Source: an uncultured Pseudomonadales bacterium (GTDB taxonomy: Bacteria > Patescibacteriota > Microgenomatia > UBA1400 > PJMF01). From it: a stretch of 53,790 bases of DNA. The translations under genes were made by a program, and so were the position numbers. The DNA is taken from contig CAYQLH010000001.1 in NCBI GenBank assembly GCA_964418385.1, positions 1-53,790 on the forward strand. The letters run 5' to 3'. Shown one piece after another: positions 359 to 53,133 of the stretch. The notes beneath the pieces were generated by a model. It saw only the letters and a list, made by a program, of their open reading frames with translations. It was not told the origin of the DNA and did not search any database. The first letter of the stretch is position 1. Each line of letters starts with the position of its first letter.

Positions 359-364
359 GTGTTT

Positions 365-572: not shown

Positions 573-658
573 GAAGTGTATAAAAATGTAACATTTTTAT
601 TAAAATGACGTCGATTGGTGTCATGAATCTTAAAAAGCGGATGATATTAAATAAAAAG

Positions 659-669
659 TGTGGTATAAT
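659..669 (+). promoter_or_regulatory. Extended -10 promoter (TGTGGTATAAT) for the CDF/Gpx pair
   Basis: Exact TGTGGTATAAT lies about 50 nt upstream of the first possible start at 718. Confidence 0.5.
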
Positions 670-717
670 TTTGTCAAACGCGATAGTTAATGCCAATTTG
701 AGGAAGTCAAGTAAAAA

Positions 718-1845
718 TTGAGAGACAACAGTATGAATGACAAGCGTGAAAAAACAATTATTCAAACAAGCACTATCAGCATAATTTCAAATATTGTCCT
801 TGCTGGCTTTAAAGCCTTTGTGGGTATGCTGGCGAACTCAATTGCAATTGTTTCTGATGCTGTTAATAATTTGAGTGATGCCTTATCAAGCATCATCACC
901 ATCGTTGGTACGAAACTTGCTAGTAAACCGCCAGATAAAAAACATCCATACGGTTATGGCAGAATTGAATATATGACCGCTTTACTTGTTTCTGCTATCG
1001 TTTTATATGCTGGTATGACTACTTTGGTGGAATCTGTGAAAAAAATTATTCAGCCCCAGCCCGCAGATTATAGCCCATTGACACTGATAATTTTAATTGT
1101 CGGCATTATGGTTAAATTTGCTTTAGGGTTGTATGTCAAGAAAAAAGGAAAAGATGTTCATTCTGATTCATTGGTGGCCAGTGGATCAGATGCATTGAGC
1201 GATGCAGTGTTATCGATTTCGGTTTTGGCAGCGGCAATTGTTTATATGATGTTTGATCTTAATTTGGAAGCGTATGTGGGGGTATTATTATCAATATTTA
1301 TTATGAAGGCCGGTTTTGAATTGATTAAAGAGTCAGTGGATAATATGCTTGGTGTCAGAGTGGAAAGCAATTTGGCCAGAGCGATAAAAAAAGAAATTGT
1401 AAAAGAAGAAGAGATACAAGGAGCGTATGATTTGGTATTAAATGATTACGGACCGGATAAGTATTTAGGATCAGTGCATATAGAAGTGGCCGATACTTTG
1501 ACTGTGGCTGATATAGATAAAATCTCGCGCAAGATTACCAAATCAATTATGAAAAAGTATGGAGTGATATTACATACGATTGGGGTTTACTCAGTAAATA
1601 CTCGGGATCAAAAATTGATTGCAGTCAAAAAAGAAATTACCAAAATAGTATTTTCTCATCCAGGAATATTACAAATGCATGGTTTTTATTTTGATCAAGA
1701 GGAGAAAAGTATCAGTTTTGATATTATTATCGATTTTAAAATAAAAAATAGAGAAAAAATTTATAAAGAAATATTTGATGAAGTGCAAAACCGCTATCAA
1801 AATTATAAAATAGATATCACCTTAGATATCGATGTGAGCGATTAA
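718..1845 (+). CDS. Cation diffusion facilitator (CDF) family divalent-metal efflux transporter
   Basis: 375-aa ORF with 6 predicted TM helices plus a C-terminal cytoplasmic domain. CDF-typical strings include SIAIVSDAVNNLSDA, HPYGYGRIEY and LVASGSDALSDA. The start may be TTG 718 or ATG 733. Confidence 0.85.
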   Translation: MRDNSMNDKREKTIIQTSTISIISNIVLAGFKAFVGMLANSIAIVSDAVNNLSDALSSIITIVGTKLASKPPDKKHPYGYGRIEYMTALLVSAIVLYAGMTTLVESVKKIIQPQPADYSPLTLIILIVGIMVKFALGLYVKKKGKDVHSDSLVASGSDALSDAVLSISVLAAAIVYMMFDLNLEAYVGVLLSIFIMKAGFELIKESVDNMLGVRVESNLARAIKKEIVKEEEIQGAYDLVLNDYGPDKYLGSVHIEVADTLTVADIDKISRKITKSIMKKYGVILHTIGVYSVNTRDQKLIAVKKEITKIVFSHPGILQMHGFYFDQEEKSISFDIIIDFKIKNREKIYKEIFDEVQNRYQNYKIDITLDIDVSD

Positions 1846-1855
1846 AGGAGATGAA

Positions 1856-2401
1856 ATGTCAATATATGATTATTTTTTACTAGATAGAAATGGTAAAGAA
1901 ATTCCATTGCAAGAATACAAAGGAAAAGTATTAATCATTGTGAACACGGCTACTGGTTGTGGTTTTACTCCGCAATATAAGGGTTTGGAAGCACTATATC
2001 AAAAATATCATGAAAAAGGATTGGAAATCATTGATATTCCATGCAATCAATTTGGCAATCAAGCGCCTGGTAGCGATAAGGAAATACACGAATTTTGTAC
2101 TTTAAAATATCGTACTTCATTTGATCAATTTGCCAAGGCGGACGTGAATGGAGAGCATGAATTGGCGTTGTATGCGTATTTAAAAAGACAAGTCAAAGCA
2201 GATAAAATAGTTGGCGCTAAAAACAAAATGATGATGAAAACAGTTGAAAAAATAAGTAAGACCACAAAAAATAAGGAAGATATCAAGTGGAATTTTACAA
2301 AGTTTTTAGTGGACAAAGAAGGAAAGGTCGTTGAAAGGTATTCTCCGACTTTTAAGCCCGAAGAAATTGAAGAAGATATCCAGAAAGTAATATCTCAATA
2401 G
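1856..2401 (+). CDS. gpx: Glutathione peroxidase family protein
   Basis: VNTATGCGFTPQY with the catalytic Cys, NQFGNQAPG, and WNFTKFLVD, which are the three canonical Gpx motifs. GGAG lies upstream of the ATG. Confidence 0.9.
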   Translation: MSIYDYFLLDRNGKEIPLQEYKGKVLIIVNTATGCGFTPQYKGLEALYQKYHEKGLEIIDIPCNQFGNQAPGSDKEIHEFCTLKYRTSFDQFAKADVNGEHELALYAYLKRQVKADKIVGAKNKMMMKTVEKISKTTKNKEDIKWNFTKFLVDKEGKVVERYSPTFKPEEIEEDIQKVISQ

Positions 2402-16692: not shown

Positions 16693-17752
16693 CAGTTTGC
16701 GGATTAAAGGCCAAAATTACCGTTTGCCGATTTTTTGCCCAGATGCAACCCGAGGCGTGGTGAAAAATTTGGATACCTCGGATTTAACTTCGGCAGGAGT
16801 GCGAGGATTAATTGTGAACACGTGGCATTTGCATGAATATCCTGGCAGCGAGGCTATGGTGGCTCATGGCGGTGTTAAAGAACTGATGGGTTGGGACGGT
16901 TTGACAATTTCTGATTCGGGTGGGTTTCAAGTGTTTTCACTTTTTCAGCGCTTACCTGGTTTTGGTAAAATTACTGATAAGGGCTTAGTCACTTACACCG
17001 GGCCCAAAAAACAGCGTCAAAAGTTGTTTCGGCCAGAAGATTCGATCCGGATGCAATTGGCGCTTGGCAGTGATATTGTGATTTGCCTGGATGATTACAC
17101 ACCACCGGAGGCAGATAAAGCGCGGGCCCGCCAGAGCGTGGAACGCACAGTTGCTTGGGCCAGACGTTGTAAAAGAGAGTATGAAAAACAATTACGTTAC
17201 TGGCGCTTGGAAGCGAGCGAACGACCGCTCATTTTTGCCGTAATCCAGGGACACGATTATATGGACTTACGCACTCAGTGCGCACAGGCATTGATGGAGA
17301 TTGGTTTTGATGGCTATTGCTTGGGTGGGGCGAAGTTTTTAGCGAACGGACGCTTGGATTTAGCGTGGGCGGCAGACAATGCACGTTTGACTCCTGACGA
17401 ATTGCCTCGTTACGCGATGGGGTTTGGTAAACCAGATGAAATCGCGGCGCTTTACCGGTGTGGTTATCAGATATTTGATTGTGTTTTGCCCACACGCGAC
17501 GCTAGGCATGGAAGATTGTACGTGAGTGACGGCAAGCAGGGTTTTAAATTTTTAAATATTAATCAAGCGAAATATGCGACAGACAAACAATCTGTAGACC
17601 GAGAGTGCGCGTGCCACACTTGCCAAACAACTACGCGCGCGTATCTACATCATTTATTGAAGCTTGGCGATGGCAGTTTTGCGCGGTTAGCAGAAATTCA
17701 CAATGCTTATTTATTTTCGCATTGGACAGACAAGTTGCGCTTGGCAAAGTAA
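16685..17752 (+). CDS. tgt: tRNA-guanine transglycosylase (Tgt) superfamily protein, divergent
   Basis: Catalytic motifs LTISDSGGFQV and IFDCVLPTRDARHGRLY, plus zinc site CACHTC...HH. The substrate-pocket region reads CLGGAKFLANG instead of the bacterial GGLAVGE. Confidence 0.8.
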   Translation: MLDSLRIKGQNYRLPIFCPDATRGVVKNLDTSDLTSAGVRGLIVNTWHLHEYPGSEAMVAHGGVKELMGWDGLTISDSGGFQVFSLFQRLPGFGKITDKGLVTYTGPKKQRQKLFRPEDSIRMQLALGSDIVICLDDYTPPEADKARARQSVERTVAWARRCKREYEKQLRYWRLEASERPLIFAVIQGHDYMDLRTQCAQALMEIGFDGYCLGGAKFLANGRLDLAWAADNARLTPDELPRYAMGFGKPDEIAALYRCGYQIFDCVLPTRDARHGRLYVSDGKQGFKFLNINQAKYATDKQSVDRECACHTCQTTTRAYLHHLLKLGDGSFARLAEIHNAYLFSHWTDKLRLAK

Positions 17753-17775
17753 GAAAATATGGTAGAATAAGCTTT

Positions 17776-18330
17776 ATGAAAAAAAATCAAGTGTGGGTGG
17801 TTTTGAGTGCAATTTTGGTCGTGGTAGCGGTGGTGACTTTGTGGCACCGTCCTCGTCAAGTGGAACTTGTGACCGTTTTGCCTGACACCAATGAACTTTT
17901 GACAAGCTCTCCGGTTGTGTTAACAGATTTAACAGCGAGTGCGGGTGCACAAGCTGGAGATATTATTTTAAGCGAGGGTGTGGGCTTAGTTGGTGGTTGG
18001 TCTGATACCGTCAGCCGGCGAGCGTCGATGGCAATTGATCCTGCGGGAGATGGTCGTTTTGACGTGGCCATTGCTTGGGGCGGGAGTGCGTGGCAGACGG
18101 CAATGTGGACTTTTACTGGCACCTGGGACGAGATAACAAAGAGCTTGGTGTATAGTGACGGTGTTTACAAAATTCAAACTTACGCTGACGACGGTACCAT
18201 GAGTGAAGAGATTCTTGGTTCCAATCAGAGTGGCTACTTGAAGTATCAGGACGGTTTTTTGTATTGGCATGACGACGCTGGCGGTCCCGGTGAGGGTGCG
18301 GCGTTTGAGCCGATGAGTGCGGAGTCGTGA
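17776..18330 (+). CDS. Hypothetical N-terminally anchored exoprotein with a small beta-rich domain
   Basis: MKKNQVWVVLSAILVVVAVVTLW anchor. The ATG lies 7 nt after TGGTAGAAT (17760-17768). I recognise no motif. Confidence 0.6.
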   Translation: MKKNQVWVVLSAILVVVAVVTLWHRPRQVELVTVLPDTNELLTSSPVVLTDLTASAGAQAGDIILSEGVGLVGGWSDTVSRRASMAIDPAGDGRFDVAIAWGGSAWQTAMWTFTGTWDEITKSLVYSDGVYKIQTYADDGTMSEEILGSNQSGYLKYQDGFLYWHDDAGGPGEGAAFEPMSAES

Positions 18331-25171: not shown

Positions 25172-25177
25172 TTGAGA

Positions 25178-25702
25178 ATGATGCAAAATGATAAGAGTGT
25201 GAACATTAATGATCAACATACAGAAGATAGTGTTGATTTGCGCGCAAATGCCGGTTGGTTTGATTTAGATACGACTTTGATTATTTTTGCTGGCATGGTG
25301 GTTTTGGTTTTGACGGGTGTTTTTTTCTCGGCGCGCAGGTTTGATAGTCGTGACACTATGAGTGACGCGAGCATGAGTACGCAACAGGTAAATGGAGTAA
25401 ATGCCGCCGGTACGAGTGGTACTCAAGCGCGCGTGCAAGATGTTTATGGTTTGTGGCGTGGTGATGGCGTGAGTTTTAACTTCCATGAGGGTGGCATGGT
25501 AGAAATTGATGACGCTGACGGTGAGCTTTTAGTTGGTTCTTGGGAATGGGATGAACAAAATTTATTGGCGAGTGTGCGTTTGAACGGTATGTCCGGTGAA
25601 GTGCACTATTTGACTTTCAGCTGGGATGATGGTTTATTGATTTTAACCAGTCAAAGTGGCAATGATTTTCAAGCCGGTTTGACTTTGGTGCGCAATGGAT
25701 GA
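25178..25702 (+). CDS. Hypothetical N-terminally anchored exoprotein, small beta-rich (lipocalin-like?) domain
   Basis: TM helix LIIFAGMVVLVLTGVFF and a C-terminal GLWRGDGVSFNFHEGGMVEI...GSWEWDE...LTFSWDDGLLILT pattern. The family is not recognised. Confidence 0.6.
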   Translation: MMQNDKSVNINDQHTEDSVDLRANAGWFDLDTTLIIFAGMVVLVLTGVFFSARRFDSRDTMSDASMSTQQVNGVNAAGTSGTQARVQDVYGLWRGDGVSFNFHEGGMVEIDDADGELLVGSWEWDEQNLLASVRLNGMSGEVHYLTFSWDDGLLILTSQSGNDFQAGLTLVRNG

Positions 25703-26905
25703 GACGAAGCCGTAACATTCTTCGAGCTCGATCTTCGATTTATTTGGTTTTGTTTTTATCATTTTTGATAAATTTCACCTTCCATCTTTCGGTGTGGAAT
25801 TTAATTCTGCTTAAACTTGGCTTTTCAATTGCCATGCTTTCACTTTACATGAGTGTGCATTATTTGACGCAATTAATATTTGAATTACCGTCAGGAATTA
25901 TAAGTGATCGTTTTGGTGCGCAAAAAACATTGATTTTAGGTGAAATTGTGCACTGGTGCAGTTTTGTTTTATTTTTGTTGTTTCCCAGCAAAGTAACTTT
26001 GATTATTCTCGCGCTTGGCGGTGGGTTTGAATGCGCTATGCTTTCAGACACTGATACAACTCTGGTTTATAAAATCTTAAAAGCTACGCGACAGATGGAT
26101 TATTACCCGCTGTTTTTTGCTTGGCACAATGCCTTGGGTTTTATGGGCTACGGTTTGGCTTCTTTAATCGGGGCTTTTGTGGCAAGTCATTGGGGTTTGA
26201 TGTGGACGCTGTGGGCAAGTTTACCGATATATACTCTTTATTTAATAATTGTTTTTTGTTTGCGTGAGCCAAAATTCTTGAAAAATGTGACTGTTAAAAA
26301 GGACTTGAAATGCTTGAGTTTGGCTGAATGCCGGCGACTAGTTTGGCGCCCGGCGCGATTTACGCTCAAGTGTTGTCTATGCGGCAATTATTTACACGTT
26401 AAATATGATTGTGTGGGCGTATTATCAAAATTACGCTGAAGAATTCGGTTTGTCAATAAACTACTACGGATTGTTGGCGCTGGCGTTTTGTTTGTGTGAA
26501 GCGGGACCGCAATTTCTGTCGCGTCATTTTGTGCATCACCAACAGATTCAACGTGTGTATAAGATATTAGCTTTTTTGGCGGGAGCTTGCCTTTTAATAG
26601 CAAGTTTAAAGATAGATGTTTGGGGTATCGTCTTTTTATTAACGACAATTGCGATCACTGGCCTTTCTTTTCCCATTAGTGATACTGTGATTAGACGCGG
26701 GAATTTGTCGTCGGCGTGGACAACGATTATTTCAATCAAAACCTTTGTTTCAATACTTTCGTTTGTAATTGCTAATATGATTTTTGGCTTGGTGGCCGAT
26801 ATCTATGGTTTGCAAGCGGGTTTTTTGGTAATAGTGAGCATAGCAGCAATTGCTTTAGTGCTTTTTTCGCATTTAGGTTATCGTTTGCAAAGTGAAGATT
26901 GCTAA
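25699..26905 (+). pseudogene. MFS transporter split by a frameshift (ORFs 25699-26439 and 26405-26905)
   Basis: The N-half carries MFS motif A (ELPSGIISDRFGAQKT) and 6 TM helices. The C-half frame is open from 26342 (FGARRDLRSSVVYAAIIYTLNMIVW...) and supplies 6 more. The frames can be joined by a 1-nt shift near 26330-26345. Confidence 0.5.
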
Positions 26906-27048: not shown

Positions 27049-27804
27049 ATGATGACAACTAATTCTTACCGCGAGGCTTTGGACCGAGCAAACGCTCGCA
27101 AGTTGCAGCTGCACCAATTGTTGGTGCACAATGTGCGAGCATTAATGCTGAAAGGTCTCCTTGAGGGACGGACGAGTTTTGCGTGCTGCTGTGACGACGA
27201 CTGTATCAGTATCGACGGCGTGGCGGTTGTGGGTTCGGAGGACGTTGGCGCTGACGTTTTTGCGCAGGTACTGTCTGCTGTTCCTCATGCCCTGCATGAG
27301 GTTTTGGGCTCGGCGCTGCTAACCAGTTTCGATGGCGAAACATTTGTCATTTCCACTGTGGCTCATGAGCGGAAATGCCGTGAACTGAACATTCGCACCA
27401 TCTTTGATGATGGCACGGTGTTTCTTGATGATGGGGGCGATGATCCTGATGCGCCAACCGTTATTGCTGATGACGTGGTGGAGCAGCTCACTCCTGAGCA
27501 CGCCACTGAATGTTTCAGCATGAATGATGAGGATAAGAGCGTGCAGTCTCTGGGAGACTTGGCGGCCAACTTGCGTGGACGCCCGTCGCGGATTTCCTTC
27601 GCTCGTCAGGCTCAGGAGCTTACCGTGCCCTCACGCATGGCTGACGCTGAAAGCGCCATTAAGCCAGACGGCGGTGCGATTCAACTGAAGTTTAAGGTTG
27701 ACGGTCTAGTCTACCGGACCCAAATTTTGGTCGATGCTGGACAGAAAGCAGCGCTGAGGGAGGCGTTGTTGCGTGGGCAGCAAGTGAGCGTCGAGGTAGT
27801 TTAA
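27049..27804 (+). CDS. Hypothetical acidic cytoplasmic protein, GC-rich orphan
   Basis: 251-aa ORF with a perfect SD (AAGGAGG, 8-nt spacing), its own promoter and its own terminator. There is no signal peptide or TM helix, and I recognise no motif. Confidence 0.7.
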   Translation: MMTTNSYREALDRANARKLQLHQLLVHNVRALMLKGLLEGRTSFACCCDDDCISIDGVAVVGSEDVGADVFAQVLSAVPHALHEVLGSALLTSFDGETFVISTVAHERKCRELNIRTIFDDGTVFLDDGGDDPDAPTVIADDVVEQLTPEHATECFSMNDEDKSVQSLGDLAANLRGRPSRISFARQAQELTVPSRMADAESAIKPDGGAIQLKFKVDGLVYRTQILVDAGQKAALREALLRGQQVSVEVV

Positions 27805-31577: not shown

Positions 31578-32810
31578 TTACTGCGTGGCACTCATGCTGG
31601 CTTCCGGTGATTGAGGCAATTTCGACTCACTTGCGGGTTCATTGGTGGTTGCGACTTCTGGTGCGGTGGACGATTCTGAGCTTGTCTCAGGAGCCAATTC
31701 AACGCTCACTTCTGGGAGTGACAATTGTTCACTATTTGTGTTCGTATTTGGGAAAAATTCCTTGTTATCAATAAAAAATCCTGTATCAATTTTAACAGGG
31801 AATTCACGGGTGCTATCAATCAACCAACCTAAATTGGCAGTATAGGTGACGATATAATAGTTGGCGATTTCTGTGCCGCCAACTTGCCCAGGACGGACTT
31901 CCATAGTCAACGCCGTGGACGTTTGACCAGCGTTGTCAGTCAGATGTGGATTGGCGAGGCGGAGTAAATAGTTGCCATCTTGATCAACAACGTAGTAAGT
32001 ACCATTTTGTGAGTCATCAAGAGACAGCGGAGTGTGGAGCAATTGTTGACCATTATCGAGCTGGAGCAAAAAACTGAATTTGTTATTGGGAAGATTGCAG
32101 CCCGCGTCTGAACCTGTGAGGCTTAAAAGCTTTAAGCAAGCGGTATCAAAATACTCGCGATCGCCAATCCAAATATTAGCGGCAATACCCCGACCTGGTT
32201 CGACAGTATATTTAAGATCGACATCGTTGGCCACTTCGAGATTGGAGACCACATCGTACCCTTGAAAACGTTCAATAGTGGTGGCAGTTTGAACTTTCTG
32301 ACTCGTAGTAATTGTTTCAAGATCAGTAGTAGTGTCAGCAATTTGATCAGCCAGAAGTTCTTGCGTGAGTCCTAGAAGCTCGCTGTCCTCGCTTAAAACA
32401 GTGCCACCAAAAAGCTGAGTGGCATCGATACCGACGTTGAAAAGCTGCCACTCAATGCCAGGCTGGTAATCTTTGCTAATTTGTACCAGCGCAAGCGAAT
32501 CGAGAAGATTAGCAGAAACGTCAGCATTAGAATTGACATCGGTAGCTGTTTTTTCGAAACGCAAAAAAGCGCTGGTGGGATTTTCTTTATCACCGAATTC
32601 AGCTCTAAACCCCGGATTGATCGCCACAAAAAGGCTACGCGAATCGTCACTTGCCGGCAAGATATTAGCATTGAGTTGGAAATTGTTGCGCCATGACGCC
32701 GGTATGAAAGGTAACGTTAAAAACCAACGGCTATTAACGACAAGTAAGAGCAAAAAGATTGCCATGACGCCGCTAAGGATATAAACTTTTTTAGATGCCT
32801 TGATTTTCAT
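31578..32810 (-). CDS. Hypothetical N-terminally anchored exoprotein with a Ser/Thr/Glu/Pro-rich tail
   Basis: Anchor VYILSGVMAIFLLLLVV. The body of about 330 aa has no motif I recognise. The C-terminal low-complexity region reads ETSSESSTAPEVATTNEPASES. Confidence 0.6.
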   Translation of the reverse strand: MKIKASKKVYILSGVMAIFLLLLVVNSRWFLTLPFIPASWRNNFQLNANILPASDDSRSLFVAINPGFRAEFGDKENPTSAFLRFEKTATDVNSNADVSANLLDSLALVQISKDYQPGIEWQLFNVGIDATQLFGGTVLSEDSELLGLTQELLADQIADTTTDLETITTSQKVQTATTIERFQGYDVVSNLEVANDVDLKYTVEPGRGIAANIWIGDREYFDTACLKLLSLTGSDAGCNLPNNKFSFLLQLDNGQQLLHTPLSLDDSQNGTYYVVDQDGNYLLRLANPHLTDNAGQTSTALTMEVRPGQVGGTEIANYYIVTYTANLGWLIDSTREFPVKIDTGFFIDNKEFFPNTNTNSEQLSLPEVSVELAPETSSESSTAPEVATTNEPASESKLPQSPEASMSATQ

Positions 32811-40790: not shown

Positions 40791-40813
40791 GTCTTTTGGA
40801 CAATTTACAGTTT

Positions 40814-40848
40814 ATGCTGCACGTGCAGCATAACGGTTTTCCAGGCGT
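40814..40848 (+). repeat. Copy 2 of the 35-nt element (ATGCTGCACGTGCAGCAT AACGG TTTTCCAGGCGT)
   Basis: A perfect 20-nt palindrome TATGCTGCACGTGCAGCATA lies at 40813-40832. The element matches 538-572 at 31 of 35 positions. Confidence 0.8.
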
Positions 40849-41021
40849 AAATGTTGTGAAATTGTTGCAAAATTTGCGTGTTGCGATTGTCTATTTGAGC
40901 ACATTGGACAGAAATAACGCTTGCAAATTTTGCTTTTGTGGCACATTGTTCTCTCCGCTCAGCTGCGATTGCGATAAACTTAATCATACACAAAACCTCA
41001 CAATCTGGAAGCTTGATCGTG

Positions 41022-41030
41022 TGGTACAAT
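41022..41030 (+). promoter_or_regulatory. Extended -10 promoter (TGGTACAAT) 7 nt from ATG 41038
   Basis: The motif is seen directly. Confidence 0.5.
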
Positions 41031-41037
41031 AAATGGT

Positions 41038-42582
41038 ATGAAAAGCAAGATTCGCACGTGGTGGCGGCGCTACGGTTGGGAAAGCCTGAGTTTACTCGTT
41101 TTGGCAGGGTTGCTGATTTTGGGAGCGACACATCACGAGCAATGGCGCGATGAAGCTCAGCAATGGCTTTTGGTGCGCGACTGCACTTTTCACGACTTGT
41201 GGCAAATGCTCGCTTACGAAGGACATTTTTTGCTATGGTACTTGCTGATTTGGCCCTTGGCACATGCCGGTTTTTCTTTGGCGAGCGTCAATTTTTTAAG
41301 CGCTTTTTTGGTGTGGCTGGCGGCAGCGTTGATTGTCTTTAAAAGTCCCTTTGTACGTTGGAAGCGGTGTGCCTTTATTTTTTGTTTGCCGATGCTGTAC
41401 TGGTACCCGGTGGTGGCGCGCTGTTACGCTTTAATTCCTCTCGCTATCGCGGCAATGGCACTCACTCACCGTCAGCGTTGGCAGCGACCCTGGGCTTATT
41501 TGTTGAGTGTTTGGTTTTTGGCTAATACTCACGTGATTATGCTTGGACTGGTGGGAATGTGTTTGTTGGTGTTTTTGCTGGAAAATATCCAAGCTTGGCC
41601 ACAAATAAAGCCGCGCTCGCGCCAGATTTTAGTTTACAGTTGGATCATGACTGGCGTCTTACTTTTGCTGACGGCGTGGCCGCTGATGGGGAGTTTGCAC
41701 AAAAATCAGATGGTGGGTAATGGCGCGACTGACCTCAAATCGGCAGTGGTAAAATTGAATTACTTGCCCCTGCAACTTTTGGGCGACAATTTTTATCTGT
41801 GGTGGCAGTGGCGCTGGAGTATTTATTTGCTTTTGTGCGTGGTAGTCTGGCACTTAATCGTCGATATCTGCGCTTATCCGCGAGACTATTTGCAAATCAT
41901 CCCTGCTGTGGGCTGGCAACTGTGGATTTACGTTGCCCTTTGGGGGCAAATTCCGCAGCGTAGTATCAGCGTCATTTTCATTTGGCTATTTTTTCACTGG
42001 TTACGCCGCGAAAAACCACTGCCCAAAATGCTGAGTGTCGATTGGAAATTGCAAAAGTCTTCCTTGGTGATTTTGTTGATCGCGAGCATTACCACTGGGA
42101 TGTATTGGTGGTGGCGTGAGTGGAAGGGCAATTATTCACAAGCAGGCAAAATTGCCGCCTATATTCAAGAAAAAATCCCCAGTGATGGGGCAGTGATAGT
42201 GATGGGCAATCGACCAGAATTTGGCTCGGCGGTGGCTGGTTTTTTACCAGCAAGTTATCGTTTTTATTATTTGCCCACACACGAAGATTTCTCTTACACT
42301 GTCTGGGATGAATCGGCGCTAGACTCAGTGACTGAGACTTCATTTTTACAGGAATTGCAGCAAGTTTTTCCGGATAAAAAGTGGTATTATCTGTACGCAG
42401 CCGAAAAAATATCACCAACTGATGATAGCGAGCTCGTGGCAACGCTCGAGGCAAATGGCGCCTTGAAATGGCTGACCGGCTGTGATGCTGGTTTTGGGGC
42501 GCGAGAGATGATTTGGCTTTTCGAGATCGTGCCAGAAGAAGCAACTAATTTATCACTCGATATTGGCACTGAAACAACGTAA
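41038..42582 (+). CDS. Polytopic membrane protein, putative GT-C-fold glycosyltransferase with a C-terminal soluble domain
   Basis: About 10 or more TM helices. An acidic motif in the first loop (HEQWRDEAQQW) resembles the GT-C DE/DxD loop. The extracytoplasmic C-terminal domain is about 140 aa. The assignment is tentative. Confidence 0.4.
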   Translation: MKSKIRTWWRRYGWESLSLLVLAGLLILGATHHEQWRDEAQQWLLVRDCTFHDLWQMLAYEGHFLLWYLLIWPLAHAGFSLASVNFLSAFLVWLAAALIVFKSPFVRWKRCAFIFCLPMLYWYPVVARCYALIPLAIAAMALTHRQRWQRPWAYLLSVWFLANTHVIMLGLVGMCLLVFLLENIQAWPQIKPRSRQILVYSWIMTGVLLLLTAWPLMGSLHKNQMVGNGATDLKSAVVKLNYLPLQLLGDNFYLWWQWRWSIYLLLCVVVWHLIVDICAYPRDYLQIIPAVGWQLWIYVALWGQIPQRSISVIFIWLFFHWLRREKPLPKMLSVDWKLQKSSLVILLIASITTGMYWWWREWKGNYSQAGKIAAYIQEKIPSDGAVIVMGNRPEFGSAVAGFLPASYRFYYLPTHEDFSYTVWDESALDSVTETSFLQELQQVFPDKKWYYLYAAEKISPTDDSELVATLEANGALKWLTGCDAGFGAREMIWLFEIVPEEATNLSLDIGTETT

Positions 42583-45878: not shown

Positions 45879-45914
45879 GTGACGGCTGGATGGTCGACAC
45901 CATCCAGCCGTCAC
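45879..45914. repeat. Perfect 16-bp inverted repeat with a 4-nt loop (GTGACGGCTGGATGGT cgac ACCATCCAGCCGTCAC)
   Basis: Seen directly, 15 nt downstream of the giant gene's stop codon and upstream of the frr promoter. There is no U-tract on either side. Confidence 0.85.
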
Positions 45915-45929
45915 CAAGTTTGACTTTCT

Positions 45930-48900
45930 TTAGATCGCAACTTCGTAGCGCTGGACATGTGGATCTTTCATCCAGCTTGGCGCTGAGGTATTGAAGTCTG
46001 GGCGCGAGTAGAAAAGATGTGGCGACATCTTGTCATTGTATTTGGGATAAAGGCGCGGATCGTCTTTGACAACCTCCCAATCAGCTTTAGTCTCTTTCCC
46101 GCCCACACAAGCACCAAAAGTCCGTGGAAGATTTAACTCGTTGTGAAGTTCAGCACCGTTTTCGTCTTTACTCCACTGAAGCATTGTCCCCGCCACGGCC
46201 AACTGCCGATCACAATAGAGATCGCCATTAAATGGTAACAGATCTGGATCAGCGACACGCCAATTTGGAATGATAAATTGCTTAGCGGCAAAGAAGCCCT
46301 GCAGATCAGCAGTATAAGGCGAGCGACAGCCTTTGTTTTCTTCCCACGCCTGAGCTGGCAATGTCCCCACACCAGGATCAATCGTGATCGTGTCTCGAGC
46401 AATAATCGCCTTGAAATGCCCCGGAGCGGTGTAGATATTGGTGTCGATCAAGAAATCACCCTCCGTCACAAAAATGATAAAATTAGTCTCTGGCGCGAAG
46501 AAGGCAGAATTTTTGGTCATGTTTTCGCCGTCTGGAGCCGGATCGTCTCTTTGAGCGCCCAGCATACTCGTGCTGACTCGCTTTTTGGTCGGCCATGAAT
46601 CATCGCGTACCGTCTTGTTGTATTTATATTTACTCTCCGTGATACCTTTGATCTGACAAATGTAAAAGCCCTCAGCGTCTTTGTCACTATAATTACCTTC
46701 ACTTATACGCTTAACTACAGCCTGACAATCTGGTAACTTGTCGATTTCTACTTTATCAGCAAAATACTTGTAGCTAAAGTCATTTTTGGCGGCGTCGGTG
46801 AAGTCAGCATTGTTCAACTTTGCTATAGAAGAACTACCACCGCCACAGCGACCATCTGACATATTATCATCTGTTCCAGCGGATGACAATGAACCATTAG
46901 CTTTACTATCGTAATTAGCAATAGTCCATTGGGGTTTAGTCACAACTACCTCCAGCCCACAACGTCTGCCACGTTCACCGACACGATAATTGGTGCTCTT
47001 GGTGCCAGGGATAAAGAGTGTGCCTTCATTCAGATTCGCCTTTTTTCCGCTGTATTCTTGTGCATGAGCTGTATCCATTGTATAACCGCCACGGCCATCG
47101 GACTTTTTATTGCAACTCAAAATATCAAAACATTGTTTTTCACCTGTGTCATTGAATGCATTCACTTTAGCTGTACACTCAGGGTGAGAAGCGTCTTCTG
47201 TATTGACTTTAACTTGACCGTAAGCACATTCATAGTAGCCGCCAATACCATATCCAGGCTTAATCTCACGTTTACCCATAGGCGTATTAATAAAGTAAGC
47301 TGCTTGATCATGGTGTGTAGTGTCGAGATCAATGGCAGTGAAGCACTTCATATAATTTGTGCGATCGTCATCTTGAAATTTCATCCCCGGTGTCTCACAA
47401 ACTGGTGCCTGACAAGCTTTGGTGCCATGAGTGACTATGCCGCAATCGTCAGTAGTCTTCGATTTACCGCCTGGACCCAAGCAGTCCACCTCGTAAAAGC
47501 CATAACGACAATCAAACACATCGTCAGCACTTGAGTTACCGCACTCGTTGACACAAGCAGGCGGGCAATGATTACACCCAATCTCTTCCAATCGGCAATT
47601 CTCATCGTCTTTACCAGTGCAGATCCATTCAAACTGTGGACCACAATTACAATCTCTGCCGCGATAATATAGTCCGTAGCTACCCCGAGTGGAGGTGAAG
47701 TAGCTACCAGATGATGCACTGCAAGCATTGTCTGAAGGTGGAGTGATACAACGACGGACAAAACGCTCCACATGTCCACAACCGTCGTCGCGGTAGCCAT
47801 ACTCCTGCCGTTCAGGTGGGCAATATGATTTGATTGCATTACGAGAGGCGAAAGCAGCAGCGTCATTAGGTGCGCACTCTTTCCAGCGGCAAACTTGAAT
47901 ATCTTCGGCGGTCGTCCCTGCACGATAATATGCTTTGGGAGCGTAAACGACTTGACCCGCGGCATCATAACTCCTAATGCGTTCACCGCGCCAGGTCAAC
48001 CAAGCATTGCGTTCGCGATAAAACATTTCGGTTCTATTTTCATAAAGGTCGCCCGCTTGCTTACTGTCAGTGTTTTTATCCCGAGAACAAGTAAGATCAG
48101 GAGTACCTCCTGTTTTTGTTTTGCAACCACAACTACATTTAATCGGTCTTCCTTCTGATGTATAAACTATTTCTCCTTTTGGACAAACTTCTGATTCACC
48201 AGTTTCACACTGTGCCGCAATATTGTCAAAGCTGTAATAGCCATAGGCTTCACATTTGTCTGCTGCAGGATAGGATGGAGTTATTGGCGGAGCGGGACAT
48301 AAAGCGTCATAGCAGTAGACCACACCATTCTCGGTGTAAATACCTCTCTTGTGACTCCGAATAAGCGCGCCGTCTGTGGCGAGACTACTATCGCTTGCAC
48401 AGTGGCCGCCGCCGCCGTACCCGCTAAAAACCTGCTCCTGTGAGTAGAGATGATTATGTGTACAAGCATTTTCACAATGGCTGATACATTGATAATTCAT
48501 ACCCATGTAAACGACATTTACTCGAATGCCAACTTCATCTCTGTCACAAGCGTTACTGCCTACTTCTTTCATAAACTGCCCGGTTGTGTCACGGACCTGA
48601 TTACAAGGCTTGCGGCAGGCGACAATGCACGATTGACCATTGGGGAGCTTTTTTGGAAGACCAGCGCTACCATCGGGACATGACGTTCGAATAGGCCAGT
48701 AACGATTTCCATTCGGGTTATTCTTCCAGTTCAAACCGTGTACAAATTGATCCTTATAAGAATCATAATACCAGTCATAGGCTGCTGCTTGAGCGCATGT
48801 CTTGTAGTTGCCGCACTCCTTGCATTGACGCCCCAGACCAGTCTCACTTGCAGGAACATAACGGATAAAATTGCTGACATCGCAACTTTCGTCCACTTCT

Positions 48901-50588
48901 ACATAGTACTCATTAACCTCGCGACAGTCTTTTTCATACCGGTAACAGCCAAATTTCTCACACGAGCCGGTATTGAGATAAGCAAGATTACTGTGCGGAC
49001 TGTTGCAAAAGGAATTACGACTTTCCTGTCCACCATAAATCTGGCCATTAGTGGCATATTCGCTGGTGCCACCAGTTATTAAACGATTGTTTACAGCTCT
49101 GAAACAACCCTCCATCAGTTTGCGAATTGTGCACCGTTCATTGTCGACGCTACTATCAGGACATAAATCACGGGCCCAGTCATTTGTTTGATTTCTCCCT
49201 TTAACTTGTTCATAATAACTCAAGCTAGCGCGAGCCATCTGAATGGCTTGTTTTAATTCTTCACGTAACGTTGGTAATTCAATGCGATACTGTCTAACAG
49301 CCTCAACGCTTTCTTCCGCTTCTTGCCACTGTTTATAGGCATCATTTTTGTATGTTGCCAATCTGCTGCGACAAGTGCTCGCATCTGTGTATGTGCTACA
49401 AGGCCAAGAATAGCCATTGTAGTGGAAATAATACCACCATTCGTAAGTATAATTACCATAGTAATATAAATCGTAGTATTTATCCCACAGCTTGTAGTAG
49501 TAATCTCGATTTGATCTGATGGTCTCCAAGCAGGAACTAGACGAAGTGTTGCTCCCGCAGTTATACTCGTAAGAACCAGCTCGGATGTACAAATTACTAC
49601 CACTGTAAGAAGCGGTGCCATAGTTAGCAAGATAGTAATAACGATAATACTGATTATAATAAGAATCCTTCTTATTTTTTAAACCATTAGCACAATCAGT
49701 TTGATTTTGATTGGTGGAACAATAACTGGAACGGTCATTGTAACTAACAAAGTAGCGCCACTGACGATCATAAGTACCATTGCTGTAGAGAGCGTTATAT
49801 CGGTCATACGTATTTTTGCGGACATCAGCAATGCTTTGCAAATCATTGATTTTACTGTCGAAGTTATAGGTGTAACTGCGATCGGCATTGTTTTCAATAT
49901 AACTGAGTTTGTTTAAAACAGAATCATGATTATTTCCATTAGGATCTGGCACTTCCGAATTTTCTAAATCGTCAAAATTGGTCTTCACCAGTTGGTTGAC
50001 ATCAGAAACTGCCCGTCGACAACGCTGTAAGGCTTCTTTGGCTGGTGTGGCCCATTTTAACGGTTTGTCCTCAAAAGTCTCACCCTTTTCGTCAAAAATA
50101 CCCACTGTGTCTTGATAGACAATAGTGCTGCAGGAATTGCCGGTCAGGGCTGCATAGCGCTCGCATACCAAAGAGCATTTTTTAGCAAAAGAATCAGCGG
50201 CGCTGATGTAACCCGTGCGACAGTGTTGCATGGTGCCGTCACAGGCTGTTTTTCTCATGTACAGTGTCCACTCTTTGTGGGTACAACCGCCGCTATCTAG
50301 CGTCCGATAATCCCAAAAAGTACGATACTGATTGCCATCAATGCTGGTGTCTAAATTTTTATAATTTAAGCGACCACCGCATTGGCTGATAAAGGCGTCC
50401 ATTTCGCTTGGTCTTTTGAGCTTTGACGTGAACCAGTAATTGAGAACGTCTGGATCGCCCCCCCCGCTATTGTGATAAGGGCACGACCACGCCAAAACTT
50501 GACTTTTTACGAAAGCGGTGAGCATCAAAACGAGCGCAAATGTTCTTATCAATTTTAACCACTGGTGACAATGTTTAAAAATCTTCAT
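45930..50588 (-). CDS. Giant (1552 aa) secreted cysteine- and tyrosine-rich protein, with no family I recognise
   Basis: An uninterrupted 4.66-kb ORF with a signal-peptide-like N-terminus (LIRTFALVLMLTAFVKSQVLA/WS). I count about 76 Cys, often in CxxC/CxC clusters (CKECGNYKTC, CSCGC, CNCG, CNHCPPACVNEC). It has a Tyr-rich triple repeat and a Cys-poor C-terminal region of about 260 aa. Its start overlaps the upstream gene's stop by 4 nt. Confidence 0.85.
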   Translation of the reverse strand: MKIFKHCHQWLKLIRTFALVLMLTAFVKSQVLAWSCPYHNSGGGDPDVLNYWFTSKLKRPSEMDAFISQCGGRLNYKNLDTSIDGNQYRTFWDYRTLDSGGCTHKEWTLYMRKTACDGTMQHCRTGYISAADSFAKKCSLVCERYAALTGNSCSTIVYQDTVGIFDEKGETFEDKPLKWATPAKEALQRCRRAVSDVNQLVKTNFDDLENSEVPDPNGNNHDSVLNKLSYIENNADRSYTYNFDSKINDLQSIADVRKNTYDRYNALYSNGTYDRQWRYFVSYNDRSSYCSTNQNQTDCANGLKNKKDSYYNQYYRYYYLANYGTASYSGSNLYIRAGSYEYNCGSNTSSSSCLETIRSNRDYYYKLWDKYYDLYYYGNYTYEWWYYFHYNGYSWPCSTYTDASTCRSRLATYKNDAYKQWQEAEESVEAVRQYRIELPTLREELKQAIQMARASLSYYEQVKGRNQTNDWARDLCPDSSVDNERCTIRKLMEGCFRAVNNRLITGGTSEYATNGQIYGGQESRNSFCNSPHSNLAYLNTGSCEKFGCYRYEKDCREVNEYYVEVDESCDVSNFIRYVPASETGLGRQCKECGNYKTCAQAAAYDWYYDSYKDQFVHGLNWKNNPNGNRYWPIRTSCPDGSAGLPKKLPNGQSCIVACRKPCNQVRDTTGQFMKEVGSNACDRDEVGIRVNVVYMGMNYQCISHCENACTHNHLYSQEQVFSGYGGGGHCASDSSLATDGALIRSHKRGIYTENGVVYCYDALCPAPPITPSYPAADKCEAYGYYSFDNIAAQCETGESEVCPKGEIVYTSEGRPIKCSCGCKTKTGGTPDLTCSRDKNTDSKQAGDLYENRTEMFYRERNAWLTWRGERIRSYDAAGQVVYAPKAYYRAGTTAEDIQVCRWKECAPNDAAAFASRNAIKSYCPPERQEYGYRDDGCGHVERFVRRCITPPSDNACSASSGSYFTSTRGSYGLYYRGRDCNCGPQFEWICTGKDDENCRLEEIGCNHCPPACVNECGNSSADDVFDCRYGFYEVDCLGPGGKSKTTDDCGIVTHGTKACQAPVCETPGMKFQDDDRTNYMKCFTAIDLDTTHHDQAAYFINTPMGKREIKPGYGIGGYYECAYGQVKVNTEDASHPECTAKVNAFNDTGEKQCFDILSCNKKSDGRGGYTMDTAHAQEYSGKKANLNEGTLFIPGTKSTNYRVGERGRRCGLEVVVTKPQWTIANYDSKANGSLSSAGTDDNMSDGRCGGGSSSIAKLNNADFTDAAKNDFSYKYFADKVEIDKLPDCQAVVKRISEGNYSDKDAEGFYICQIKGITESKYKYNKTVRDDSWPTKKRVSTSMLGAQRDDPAPDGENMTKNSAFFAPETNFIIFVTEGDFLIDTNIYTAPGHFKAIIARDTITIDPGVGTLPAQAWEENKGCRSPYTADLQGFFAAKQFIIPNWRVADPDLLPFNGDLYCDRQLAVAGTMLQWSKDENGAELHNELNLPRTFGACVGGKETKADWEVVKDDPRLYPKYNDKMSPHLFYSRPDFNTSAPSWMKDPHVQRYEVAI

Positions 50589-51730
50589 TGGCTCAAAAGT
50601 CCGCTACTAATTAGTTTTTCGTAGATCTGCTGCGCAGAGAGAGTGGTGAGATCATTGATCACGTTATCTTTGTCGTCGGCCTTGCCGGTGCGCTTGGTGA
50701 CGACGAGGCGGCAAACTGGACCTGAAATAATGGGACGCATTTGTTGGGCGATAGTTTCGCCGTCAGTCTCAGGATTGATGTTTTCGGTGATGTCCGTGGC
50801 GTAGCGGCGCAGCGCCTCGGCCATCAAGCATCTTTGTGTGGGCGTAAAGTTCCCGGTGTCGAATTGCATGTAGCGTGGAAAAGCACGTTTGGTCAGATAG
50901 ACAAAGTCAAGTGCTGCCACGTCTAGGAATTCATTTTCACGCGGTTGATAGTCGAGATTGGTCTTGTAAGCCGCAAAGTGTCGCTCAAGAGCGAGCAGCA
51001 AATCACGGTAGACAAGAGTGTTGACATTGGCTTCGTTGAGGCTTTCGTCTTGGTCAAACTTGAGTTTCTCTAATTGTTCTTCATTGGCCACCAGAAGTTT
51101 TTGCAGATCTTTGTCAAAATTCTTACTGGCTGTTTGCAGGTGATAGCCCGCGACATAAACAAAAGGAATGACTTTGTCGCTCTCTTCGAGCTCGTAGCCG
51201 TGATGAATATCTTGATGCAATTTGTCCAATTCTGGATAATTTAGTTCCACCGCGGCGCTTAAACAAAGCTCGTGCGCTATCGCGCGTGTCTTGGCATCTA
51301 GTTTTTGATCGGCTTCAAGATCGCTCATGAGTAAACAGTTGAGCGCCGTCAACTTATCAGTGGCTACCAACTTTTGCGCTTGATTGAGATAATGTTTTGT
51401 TTGTGGATAGGTCTCATCAGTGGCTTTTTCGAGTGCGTGCCACGCCCACGCGGCGGCAAGAGTATTGTCGAGTGAATTGACGATTTCTTCTTCCGGAATA
51501 CTCGTGAGTAAGCGGCGCGCTTGCGCTTGGTATTTATCGTCAGCTTGGGCAACGAGATTTGCGCGTTGCCTGTCAGCAGCGAGCATTACGGTAATCGCAG
51601 AAATGATCAAAAGCACAGCGGCAGTGATACCCAGTGAAAGCGATAAGATTTGGTTAGCCTTTATCCAGGAGACAGTTTGGCGAAAAGCGGTTGCTAGTTG
51701 GTCGGTGATTTTTTTCATGTCATCTTTCAT
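50585..51730 (-). CDS. Hypothetical single-pass membrane protein with a large helical ectodomain (381 aa)
   Basis: TM helix ILSLSLGITAAVLLIISAITVML after a charged N-terminus. The remainder is rich in Leu/Glu/Lys/Asp and looks helical. It overlaps both flanking genes by 4 nt. Confidence 0.7.
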   Translation of the reverse strand: MKDDMKKITDQLATAFRQTVSWIKANQILSLSLGITAAVLLIISAITVMLAADRQRANLVAQADDKYQAQARRLLTSIPEEEIVNSLDNTLAAAWAWHALEKATDETYPQTKHYLNQAQKLVATDKLTALNCLLMSDLEADQKLDAKTRAIAHELCLSAAVELNYPELDKLHQDIHHGYELEESDKVIPFVYVAGYHLQTASKNFDKDLQKLLVANEEQLEKLKFDQDESLNEANVNTLVYRDLLLALERHFAAYKTNLDYQPRENEFLDVAALDFVYLTKRAFPRYMQFDTGNFTPTQRCLMAEALRRYATDITENINPETDGETIAQQMRPIISGPVCRLVVTKRTGKADDKDNVINDLTTLSAQQIYEKLISSGLLSQ

Positions 51731-52401
51731 TCAAATAGCGCTTGAGTCTCCGGGGAATTATCCAAAACTGCGTCTGCCTCCAAGCGATGAGCGGTGGCTG
51801 TCGCCGTCGTTCCATCCCAAACATAAGGCATAGCATTACCGTCATCCGTATAAATGTAGTGATTGTCGTAGGTGCCCTCAAATTCCAAACCCATAAAATT
51901 AAACTCAACGGTGTTGTTGGCGTTGACACGGAAATAGATGCCCCGCCCAAGTTGGTTCAAACTACTGATATCTTTTTCGACACCCTGCTCGAAAAGCCTA
52001 ATCACTTTGTAAATTCCTGGTGGGGGTGCCACTTGATCAGTCCGGCTTTCGGTGAGTGCTACTAAATCGTTGGTGGCGTAGACTGTGCCATTAACGTCCG
52101 TGTTGGCGACACCATAATATTTCATGAGTTCCGTCACTTCGTTGGCGAGGTAATCCTCTACATGGGATTCGCTAGTTTGCGAGGAATAACTGATGGGCAC
52201 TGGCTCTTCTTCCGGGTGATCGTTGCTACTCGTGGCGGTACTAGGAGTGTCACTGGCGGGCGTGGTTGTGGTCGTTTCCTGAGGCGTTGAGTTACTCACC
52301 ATTTTGATCAATAAGCCACCAATCACAAGCGCCATCACGCCAATGAGGGCAAAAATAAGATACATCACCAGTTTTTTAGTTTTGTCTCGACTCATATCCA
52401 T
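51727..52401 (-). CDS. Hypothetical N-terminally anchored exoprotein with a Thr/Ser-rich linker (224 aa)
   Basis: TM helix LVMYLIFALIGVMALVIGGLLI, linker TPQETTTTTPASDTPSTATSS and a beta-rich C-terminal domain. An AAGGAAA RBS is present, with TGCTAAAAT upstream. Confidence 0.7.
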   Translation of the reverse strand: MDMSRDKTKKLVMYLIFALIGVMALVIGGLLIKMVSNSTPQETTTTTPASDTPSTATSSNDHPEEEPVPISYSSQTSESHVEDYLANEVTELMKYYGVANTDVNGTVYATNDLVALTESRTDQVAPPPGIYKVIRLFEQGVEKDISSLNQLGRGIYFRVNANNTVEFNFMGLEFEGTYDNHYIYTDDGNAMPYVWDGTTATATAHRLEADAVLDNSPETQALFE

Positions 52402-52525
52402 AAGTTTCCTTGCGTTTCATTTTAGCATTTTTCCCGCTTTTGGCAAGTGGCAGTTTTGCACGCGAAATCAAAGAAAATTATAATTCAATCTGGTAAGCAA
52501 TTTGTGGACGTGAGCTTGCTGGTTT

Positions 52526-52536
52526 TGTGGTATAAT
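52526..52536 (+). promoter_or_regulatory. Extended -10 promoter (TGTGGTATAAT) for efp
   Basis: Exact motif 30 nt upstream of the efp ATG. A GGAAAGGA RBS lies in between. Confidence 0.55.
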
Positions 52537-52566
52537 ATTGAATCTTAGAATTTGCGGAAAGGAATT

Positions 52567-53133
52567 ATGGCAACAGTCAATGGCGGCAATCTCAAAAAGG
52601 GCATGTACATTAGTTTTAAAGGGCAGCCACATCAAGTCACAGGGACGCAGTTTGTTTCTCCAGGCAAGGGATCGGCGTTTACACGAGCCAAGCTCAAAAA
52701 TCTGACTACTGGTAATACCTTGGAATTCACTTTTAAATCCACGGAAACGATCGAAGTTTTGGATATTCCTAGTCGCGAGCTGACTTATTCTTATCATGAT
52801 GACGATGTGGTCGCTTTCATGGATATGCGCACTTATGAGCAATTTGAAGTCAAACGCGATCTCGTGGGTGACGGTGTTTATTATTTAACTCCAGACGTCA
52901 AGGCTTACGTGATGTTTTTGGACGACCAGCCGATCGGTGTCACACTGCCGCCCAAAGTCAAGCTCAAAGTCACCGAAGCACCAGAAGCAATCAAGGGCGA
53001 TCGCGTGACAGCAGGTAAAAAACCGGTCGTAATGGAGACGGGTTTAACCGTGCAGGCGCCGATTTTCATCAAAACTGGCGAAACGCTTTTGATTGACACA
53101 ACCAACGGTGAATACGTCTCTCGGGCGAACTGA
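52567..53133 (+). CDS. efp: Elongation factor P
   Basis: Full-length EF-P pattern, including VSPGKGSAFTRAKLKN, which holds the conserved loop Lys. Confidence 0.93.
   Translation: MATVNGGNLKKGMYISFKGQPHQVTGTQFVSPGKGSAFTRAKLKNLTTGNTLEFTFKSTETIEVLDIPSRELTYSYHDDDVVAFMDMRTYEQFEVKRDLVGDGVYYLTPDVKAYVMFLDDQPIGVTLPPKVKLKVTEAPEAIKGDRVTAGKKPVVMETGLTVQAPIFIKTGETLLIDTTNGEYVSRAN

Follow-up and report, generated by a model that had tools for sequence, protein, structure and literature searches.

A three-gene operon in the window, the whole 53,790-nucleotide (nt) stretch of contig CAYQLH010000001.1 analysed here, encodes two apparent single-pass membrane proteins, g1 and g2, and a 1552-residue protein, the giant, which has a cleavable-looking signal peptide and seemingly no anchor of its own. 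The giant ends in a C-terminal module (C-module), and across the wider family that shares it this module nearly always follows a g2 homologue. It is quite possible, though somewhat short of probable, that the operon specifies a cell-surface complex in which the giant is docked by its C-module on membrane-anchored g2, with g1 as an accessory and the body of the giant facing outward. What was an anonymous giant open reading frame (ORF) is now a defined unit, with three co-occurring families, a cysteine framework, a portable C-module, a fixed partner gene and an animal-gut habitat.

In such a complex, the giant would be exported by Sec and would fold extracellularly, most of its ~76 cysteines forming disulfides. 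The C-module would bind the extracytoplasmic helical domain of g2, possibly through its tail, R-x-E-x-x-COOH, and g2 would serve as a membrane anchor or stalk that keeps the giant on the cell. The g1 protein, with its small domain and a Thr-rich stalk that is probably O-glycosylated, may be an accessory subunit of the giant-type complexes. The N-terminal part of the giant, a long body that evolves faster, would point outward, touching a host cell or a substrate. Docking on g2 is favoured because an anchorless giant is co-encoded with a membrane-anchored partner, and because the conserved, portable part of the giant is the C-module. The position of related loci among cell-envelope genes, the invariance of 53 of the 76 cysteines and the superior conservation of the C-module also speak for it.

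Conservation of the gene cassette

The original prediction expected the three genes to be syntenic in other genomes, and homologues of g1, g2 and the giant do stand together at five other loci from gut Patescibacteria metagenome-assembled genomes (MAGs) and metagenomes. The order is g1-g2-giant at L086 and L087, and g2-giant-g1 at L088, L092 and L094; L087 contains an additional g2-giant pair. Wherever the flanking DNA of another giant is long enough, the end of g2 briefly overlaps the start of the giant, mostly by 4 nt, and g1 is adjacent. The ORF of the giant is not a product of chance, since six other giants preserve it over its full length and the trio is present at five further loci.

A g2 homologue is also found directly upstream of the short C-module proteins at five of the seven loci checked (L089, L091, L097, L098 and L100), and no g1 homologue was seen at these five. 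In total, 11 other loci have a g2 homologue as the gene directly preceding a C-module protein. What is conserved at the core is thus a pair, g2 with a C-module protein, rather than the trio, because the short cassettes have g2, and g1 occurs only with giants. Across 11 cassettes, the divergence of g2 is correlated with that of the C-module (Mantel r = 0.61; one of 5000 permutations reached this r). This shows that the two genes have long been inherited together, with contact not implied.

The giant and its relatives

When 5.8 billion proteins were searched through a word index, the giant had a single homologue, P0002, at 45% identity, and g1 and g2 had only 99% copies. The orphan-gene reading that this suggested was overturned by an exhaustive search together with the synteny. 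With a profile of the last 1100 residues of the giant as the query, HMMER found 15 proteins among 1.84 billion cluster representatives, all of them with the C-module: four of giant size (the window's own and three others), one 181-residue C-terminal fragment, and ten shorter proteins of 341-787 residues. The ten are mostly secreted and Cys-rich, and have only the C-module in common with the giant. Homologues with conserved cysteine spacing had been predicted and were found, as seven giants (the window's and six full-length relatives) are collinear and 26-51% identical, and yet all seven share 53 of the 76 cysteines of the window's giant. Because a signal peptide is combined with this conserved framework of ~50 cysteines, the giant is probably an extracytoplasmic, disulfide-stabilised protein.

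Most of what had been claimed about the composition of the protein was borne out. The 4.66-kb gene, said to take almost 9% of the window, takes 8.7%; the ~76 cysteines (~5%) placed mostly in the first ~1300 residues are exactly 76 (4.9%), with 73 before residue 1312 and three after. A Tyr-rich repeat block was recovered as well. Residues 284-410 hold 28 of the 115 tyrosines (7.4%) and three C-x8-C pairs (Cys 290/299, 344/353 and 397/406) at a spacing of ~54 residues, outside of which the cysteine spacing is irregular. Few parts of the giant are conserved as little as this block (identity 0.17-0.21 to other giants), whose cysteines are kept in three to six of the seven. The claim of frequent CxxC-type clusters failed, CxxC being rare (2 sites among the 76 cysteines, beside 3 CxC and 8 Cx3C).

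Export or anchor signals had been assigned to all three proteins, and each has one. There is a single hydrophobic segment in g1 (residues 8-38) and in g2 (residues 25-55), and the giant has the predicted signal-peptide-like N-terminus, in which a basic stretch is followed by a 12-residue hydrophobic core, TFALVLMLTAFV, and then by ...VLA/WSC. An N-terminus of this type is common to all seven giants. Over 12 residues the Kyte-Doolittle score peaks at residue 16 (2.46); the membrane-helix threshold is not attained in any 19-residue window, and a hydropathy scan of the giant found no second hydrophobic stretch and none past residue 40. A regular-expression search of g1, g2 and the giant found no LPXTG, lipobox or pilin-type signal, and a sortase (LPXTG) adhesin or a lipoprotein was rejected because the motif is absent from all three. 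With neither LPXTG nor lipobox nor a membrane helix, the giant would need a partner to be kept on the cell. A type IV pilus tip protein or minor pilin was also rejected, since the class III signal (G/F-T-L-x-E) is absent from the three N-termini; PilM and T4SS-pilin genes near L088 and L089 lie several kb off, outside the cassette.

Conservation of the giant is highest over the last ~190 residues, the body being more divergent. The best conserved core of the C-module comprises residues ~1370-1552 (window 45933-46481), ending ...YSRPDFNTSAPSWMKDPHVQRYEVAI, and the matches of the profile search concentrate at profile positions ~944-1127. The C-module is 70-88% identical to P0002, compared with ~45% for the rest of the giant. 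An AlphaFold2 model, which within the giant covers the C-terminal 402 residues, was built from an alignment of 16 sequences (A7) and is of mixed beta/alpha structure (predicted local distance difference test, pLDDT, 73.2; predicted template modelling score, pTM, 0.77). The tail R-x-E-x-x-COOH is invariant in the alignment and disordered in the model. Foldseek found no significant match to this model (best E 1.9 against PDB, a bactofilin, and 2.1 against BFVD). A Cys-poor, beta-looking C-terminal region of ~260 residues had been predicted; it is indeed Cys-poor, but the conserved unit is longer, ~400 residues, and the model is not purely beta.

The C-module contains invariant polar residues (D1460, R1489, N1518, R1547 and E1549), as might an active domain. 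This would fit an improbable alternative, in which the giant is a released bacteriocin-like or host-lytic toxin with the C-module as its active part, and g1 and/or g2 are immunity proteins or export helpers. The giant has no anchor of its own, one short member carries a Hint/pretoxin-HINT domain of a kind often seen in polymorphic toxins, at three loci the giant is followed by g1, in the usual position of an immunity gene, and cultivated Patescibacteria are described as obligate episymbionts. A polymorphic toxin layout was nevertheless rejected: the conserved end is the C-terminus, the reverse of polymorphic toxins with their conserved N-terminus and variable C-terminal toxin, and the constant partner, g2, is upstream. 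No toxin, hydrolase or defence profile or fold was matched in the searches made, and neither an invariant His or Ser nor a free catalytic Cys is evident. Moreover, the constant upstream position of g2 and its translational coupling are more in keeping with a stoichiometric partner than with an immunity protein.

Individual relatives show features of their own. The sister organism apparently has two giants. At L084:1-465 an orthologue lies upstream of frr, and its 154-residue C-terminal fragment is 84% identical to the window giant. P0002 (L001:78-4637) is a 45%-identical paralogue beside ruvB, with a promoter-like site TTGTCA...TGtTAGAAT. L082 (Logan SRR28201445 contig _30906) compared with window 50734-52819 has a mosaic identity: the efp body is ~83% identical at the DNA level, like the other genes of the sister organism (L084, 82%), and identity is ~99% over the stretch that starts at the 5' end of efp and includes g1 and most of g2. 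Either a g1-g2 segment has recently recombined between two species, or the contig is chimeric. In P0025 (L089:8001-10364), one of the short family members, a Hint/bacterial intein-like domain at residues ~64-213 (Pfam Hint, PT-HINT and Hom_end_hint; E 1e-8 to 7e-7) is inserted just past the signal peptide and a Gly/Cys-rich stretch, which suggests that this secreted protein may undergo self-cleavage or splicing.

The membrane-anchored partners

The homology of g2 proteins is modest in blastp (3e-8 to 5e-4) and strong in profile searches (2e-58 to 6e-89). Three cysteines, Cys132, Cys156 and Cys301, are conserved. The invariant residues of the family alignment are hydrophobic, Cys and Gly plus one Thr, none of them of a catalytic type, which fits a scaffold rather than an enzyme. 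The second protein had been predicted to be helical with an anchor, and besides its hydrophobic segment g2 has an all-helical AlphaFold2 model (7-sequence alignment; pLDDT 76.4, pTM 0.73). Foldseek against PDB gave no significant match to it (best 14-3-3, E 0.17); some alpha/alpha toroids aligned at TM 0.26-0.33, likewise without significance. A LanC-like or glycosidase-like alpha/alpha-toroid enzyme was rejected, since the fold matches of g2 are not significant and residues of a catalytic type are not conserved in it. By profile-profile comparison, g2 and the C-module are unrelated. Provisionally, the modelled folds of the C-module and g2 may be regarded as new in comparison with PDB, and for the C-module also with BFVD, rather than with predicted cellular structures.

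A protein of this kind could also act as an extracytoplasmic folding or assembly chaperone of C-module proteins during disulfide formation instead of as a permanent anchor, the mature giant being afterwards attached to the wall or released. We consider this distinctly unlikely. The strict pairing of g2 with the C-module through 4-nt overlaps, the helical-repeat model with its weak best matches to peptide-binding cradles (14-3-3) and alpha/alpha toroids, the lack of catalytic-type invariant residues and the fact that no Dsb-type gene was seen nearby would all agree with it. However, the Foldseek matches are not significant (E of at least 0.17), the giant has no wall-binding domain (SLH, LysM, CWB2 or LPXTG) that could take over retention, and the data at hand fit g2 as an anchor equally.

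The homologues of g1 that adjoin giants at the five other loci were matched by blastp (4e-39 to 9e-16) and hmmsearch (2e-61 and 4e-64), and the C-terminal domain of g1 carries the motifs APPxGxY...GTYDxHY...PYxWDG...HR. No credible match to g1 was found in Pfam, NCBIfam, PDB profiles or PADLOC. The strongest match of all three window proteins is a weak one, that of g1 residues 6-108 to PHROG 8545, 'superinfection exclusion Sie-like' (E 6.5e-7). It is probably compositional, because the alignment is limited to the membrane helix and the Thr-rich linker.

Genomic neighbourhood and distribution

The family is rare. GTDB was scanned with one genome per species (185,579 genomes); the window's own genome is not a representative and hence lies outside the scan. 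Giant-type proteins occur in two genomes, 'RGIG2556 Goat_Jejunum' and a 'Patescibacteria group bacterium' MAG, with two copies each, and the short type in one genome with five copies, so that the whole family is present in three species representatives. Scanning the GTDB genomes with the window giant as a single-protein query gave no match. Related copies were found in goat jejunum and in further gut MAGs and metagenomes. The 'central role' once proposed for the operon is weakened by this rarity (15 of 1.84 billion cluster representatives; three of 185,579 species).

Related loci are situated beside LytR-CpsA-Psr, GT1, GT2 and PMT_2 glycosyltransferase genes of the cell envelope, and the window has a similar LytR-CpsA-Psr/glycosyltransferase cluster ~30 kb from the operon. 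Such clusters build wall polymers, and would also be at home next to a surface layer (S-layer). An alternative is therefore that the giant forms an S-layer-like envelope lattice held by g2 and g1, which would serve protection or shape and diverge under phage or immune pressure. This seems unlikely, even though its architecture would be identical to that of a giant docked on g2 and a small genome invests heavily in the giant. Bacterial S-layer proteins known so far are typically poor in Cys, as opposed to the 4.9% Cys of the giant. An essential coat would be expected across related Patescibacteria, yet only three of 185,579 species representatives have the family, and there are two paralogues per genome.

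Four giant loci (L086, L087, L088 and L094) have a recurring wider neighbourhood, which consists of LytR-CpsA-Psr, a PDDEXK_1 nuclease-like gene, an AMP-binding enzyme and a GT1/GT2/PMT_2 block. The same four encode a conserved membrane protein of 312-329 residues with NYNYNY repeats. At L089:14602-16012, ~4 kb downstream of the short C-module cassette, there are three tandem T4SS_pilin (PF18895) genes, with an FtsK-like gene within ~0.6 kb.

No relatives were found in the viral, phage and plasmid collections IMG/VR, INPHARED and PLSDB. Phage or plasmid cargo, such as a tail fibre or receptor-binding protein, was rejected on the grounds that there are no viral or plasmid relatives and no significant PHROG match of the giant, and that the flanking genes efp, frr and rseP are housekeeping genes.

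Weighing the proposed docking of the giant on g2

Several points weigh against the giant being docked on g2. Expression, export, disulfides, surface location and contact between g2 and the giant are all deduced from sequence rather than from direct evidence. The placement of the g2 domain outside the cell is suggested by its conserved cysteines and by context, not by a predictor. The Mantel result is no proof of binding, because co-inherited adjacent genes also diverge together. Genes for DsbA, DsbB or VKOR were not found within the window. The alignments behind the two structure models are shallow (16 and 7 sequences), and parts of each model are of low confidence. Finally, P0002 has no visible g1 or g2 homologue in the 78 bases upstream or in the downstream DNA, and has its own promoter-like site; if the docking holds, an anchor acting in trans must be assumed for this giant.

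A more far-reaching version of the same idea, doubtful at present, is that g2 and the C-module make up a previously undescribed modular surface-display system of gut Patescibacteria. In this view the C-module, as a new fold, would connect varied cargo ectodomains of 500 to 1900 residues, rich in disulfides, to a dedicated membrane-anchored helical receptor, g2, giants with g1 would be host-recognition determinants, and the divergence of paralogues would set the host range.

How Patescibacteria recognise and hold their hosts beyond type IV pili is poorly understood, and most of their large surface proteins are unannotated. If docking is true, it offers a handle to localise, pull down or block a surface complex of uncultivated gut episymbionts, and adds two folds without a PDB match, of which the C-module is also without a BFVD match. 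If docking fails, the module is still a marker of a narrow clade. The rarity of the family (15 cluster representatives in 1.84 billion) limits generality in either case.

Comparison with known systems

The original prediction recognised no known family, and this was upheld by all libraries searched, with fold comparison applied to the two usable models. The three proteins gave nothing usable against Pfam, NCBIfam, PHROGs and PADLOC, nor did family members against Pfam and PHROGs, and PDB sequence profiles for the giant, the C-module, g2 and g1 returned chance-level matches only. The giant matched zero Pfam families at E <= 1, and no Cys-repeat family was found in the ten related giants and short members scanned. 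Taken with the Foldseek searches, these results place none of the proteins in a characterised family. Nothing specific was found in the literature on this family, or on transposon-sequencing (Tn-seq) hits in cultivated Saccharibacteria.

Large secreted Cys-rich proteins of Candidate Phyla Radiation (CPR) bacteria are a kind already described, for Peribacteria. These proteins, of unknown function and with a proposed role in attachment, measure 1655 +/- 751 residues with 7.2% Cys and have signal peptides, and strain variation has been reported (Anantharaman et al. 2016, PMC4736985). By the features given there, the giant belongs to this class, as it exceeds 1000 residues (1552), is Cys-rich, has a signal-peptide-like N-terminus and comes from a CPR genome; its Cys content is lower, 4.9% versus 7.2% (PMC4736985). 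The abstract and the text on cysteines mention no partner-gene cassette and no shared C-terminal module (PMC4736985). The giant also differs in that it has no sequence relationship beyond its 15-member family in the HMMER search of 1.84 billion representatives, a set in which the presence of the Peribacteria proteins is unconfirmed. What is new, judging by sequence comparison, is three protein families absent from the libraries searched, a C-module with an apparently dedicated membrane partner, and the occurrence of the trio in gut Patescibacteria.

In the SlaA/SlaB S-layer of Sulfolobus, one operon encodes a large secreted anchorless protein and the stalk protein, largely helical and membrane-anchored, by which it is kept on the cell. 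This system is archaeal, its stalk protein is anchored at the C-terminus, and glycosylation is likely. The operon described here may be analogous, with a giant without an anchor encoded beside membrane-anchored helical g2, and glycosylation likely here too. On the other hand, the anchor of g2 is N-terminal, the giant is Cys-rich, the organism is bacterial, and this operon is known from genes, a lattice having been seen only in SlaA/SlaB. Foldseek against PDB found no SlaA/SlaB-type relation at E <= 0.001 for the C-module and g2, and the PDB profiles were empty in this respect.

The adhesin operons of Mycoplasma (P1 with P40/P90, and P140/P110) encode proteins that have their own C-terminal membrane helices and are not Cys-rich. 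A host-dependent bacterium with a reduced genome and a short operon of co-translated surface partners would be common to both cases. The giant, in contrast, has no membrane helix and is Cys-rich, and Pfam and PDB profile searches found no homology.

A resemblance to eukaryotic furin/EGF-like repeat proteins and Giardia VSPs had been proposed, and proved unsupported. These proteins and the giant share a presumably extracellular location and many cysteines. The likeness to VSPs is superficial because CxxC is rare in the giant, and a VSP-like or CxxC-repeat protein was rejected, with 2 CxxC among 76 cysteines and no hydrophobic segment past residue 40. The giant has no C-terminal membrane helix and no CRGKA tail, and no match to Pfam VSP, EGF or furin profiles; furin-like/EGF-like repeats were rejected for lack of any Pfam repeat profile match.

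Operon layout and expression signals

The layout of the operon (Table 1) is as predicted. The ORF list confirms three co-directional ORFs of 224, 381 and 1552 residues, and the 4-nt stop/start overlaps claimed at 51727-51730 and 50585-50588 are both ATGA junctions on direct reading (...GAATGAAAG... and ...CAATGAAGA...). An alternative in-frame ATG of g2 lies four codons downstream and was chosen by the gene caller of another assembly, giving 377 residues; tight coupling of the operon genes holds with either start.

The claim of a single upstream promoter and ribosome-binding region agrees with one promoter-like site and one AAGGAAA, both ahead of g1. The former is promoter-like by consensus match, and is 99% identical in a second sample (L082). 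A very strong hairpin after the last stop had also been reported. Its strength is confirmed (minimum free energy -36.2 kcal/mol, z = -5.2; none of 200 shuffles equally stable), but it is not a canonical intrinsic terminator because it has no U-tract, and it was not listed by the terminator scan. It likely marks the 3' end of the operon transcript or stabilises the transcript. The sister organism (L084) has a related palindrome at the equivalent position, and an exact search for the hairpin sequence among GTDB species representatives gave no match. A separate promoter-like site at 45842-45814 belongs to frr, the next gene.

Table 1. Positions of the operon genes, their domains and signals, and other ORFs in the window
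Feature	Position	Strand	Details
Gene 1 (g1)	51727-52401	minus	224 residues; ORF list
Gene 2 (g2)	50585-51730	minus	381 residues; ORF list
Gene 3 (giant)	45930-50588	minus	1552 residues; ORF list
Promoter-like site upstream of g1	52446-52419	minus	TTGCCA-16 nt-TGcTAAAAT, extended -10; consensus scan, 10/12 matches plus TG before -10
Shine-Dalgarno-like AAGGAAA	52411-52405	minus	3 nt between its end and the g1 ATG at 52401; direct reading
Domains of g1			N-terminal membrane anchor (residues ~12-33), Thr/Ser/Pro-rich linker, conserved ~130-residue C-terminal domain
Domains of g2			N-terminal membrane anchor (residues ~28-50), then all-alpha domain; AGLLSQ motif at C-terminus
Signal-peptide-like N-terminus of giant, residues 1-33	50490-50588	minus	Basic n-region, TFALVLMLTAFV core, VLA/WSC boundary; from translation
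Tyr-rich block of giant, residues 284-410	49359-49739	minus	28 Tyr, three C-x8-C pairs
C-module of giant, residues 1151-1552	45933-47138	minus	Common to smaller secreted Cys-rich proteins
Hairpin	45879-45914	minus	Perfect 16-bp stem, 4-nt loop, 15 nt past the giant stop codon
ORF without Pfam match	41038-42582	plus
ORF without Pfam match	31578-32810	minus
ORF without Pfam match	27049-27804	plus
ORF without Pfam match	25172-25702	plus
ORF without Pfam match	17605-18330	plus

Host and other features of the window

The organism of the window belongs to the CPR/Patescibacteria, because the beta subunit of its ATP synthase is 76-77% identical to that of Patescibacteria MAGs. This affiliation is the one guessed earlier, and the bacterium is taken to be tiny and host-dependent. 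As had been stated, frr and efp are among the housekeeping neighbours that flank the operon: efp and coaE lie on one side, and frr, an M50 (RseP-type) protease gene, a DUF3048 gene and the F-type ATP synthase operon on the other.

The taxonomic labels of some TPA_asm MAG records look unreliable. Records labelled 'uncultured Gammaproteobacteria' or 'Pseudomonadales' (L004, L007, L008, L022, L039 and L096-L100) carry either an ATP synthase 71-75% identical to that of the window or five copies of the C-module family.

Elsewhere in the window, two overlapping ORFs at 25699-26905 on the plus strand (246 and 166 residues) both match MFS_1, and are probably parts of a single transporter gene that a frameshift or an assembly error has interrupted. 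Five ORFs of 176-514 residues have no Pfam match at E <= 1e-5 (Table 1), and the 514-residue one overlaps an opposite-strand ORF of 152 residues (40805-41263). The first 2000 nt of the window (1-2000) have a GC content of 36%, compared with 42-49% elsewhere in the window, and contain most of a cation-efflux gene (718-1845).

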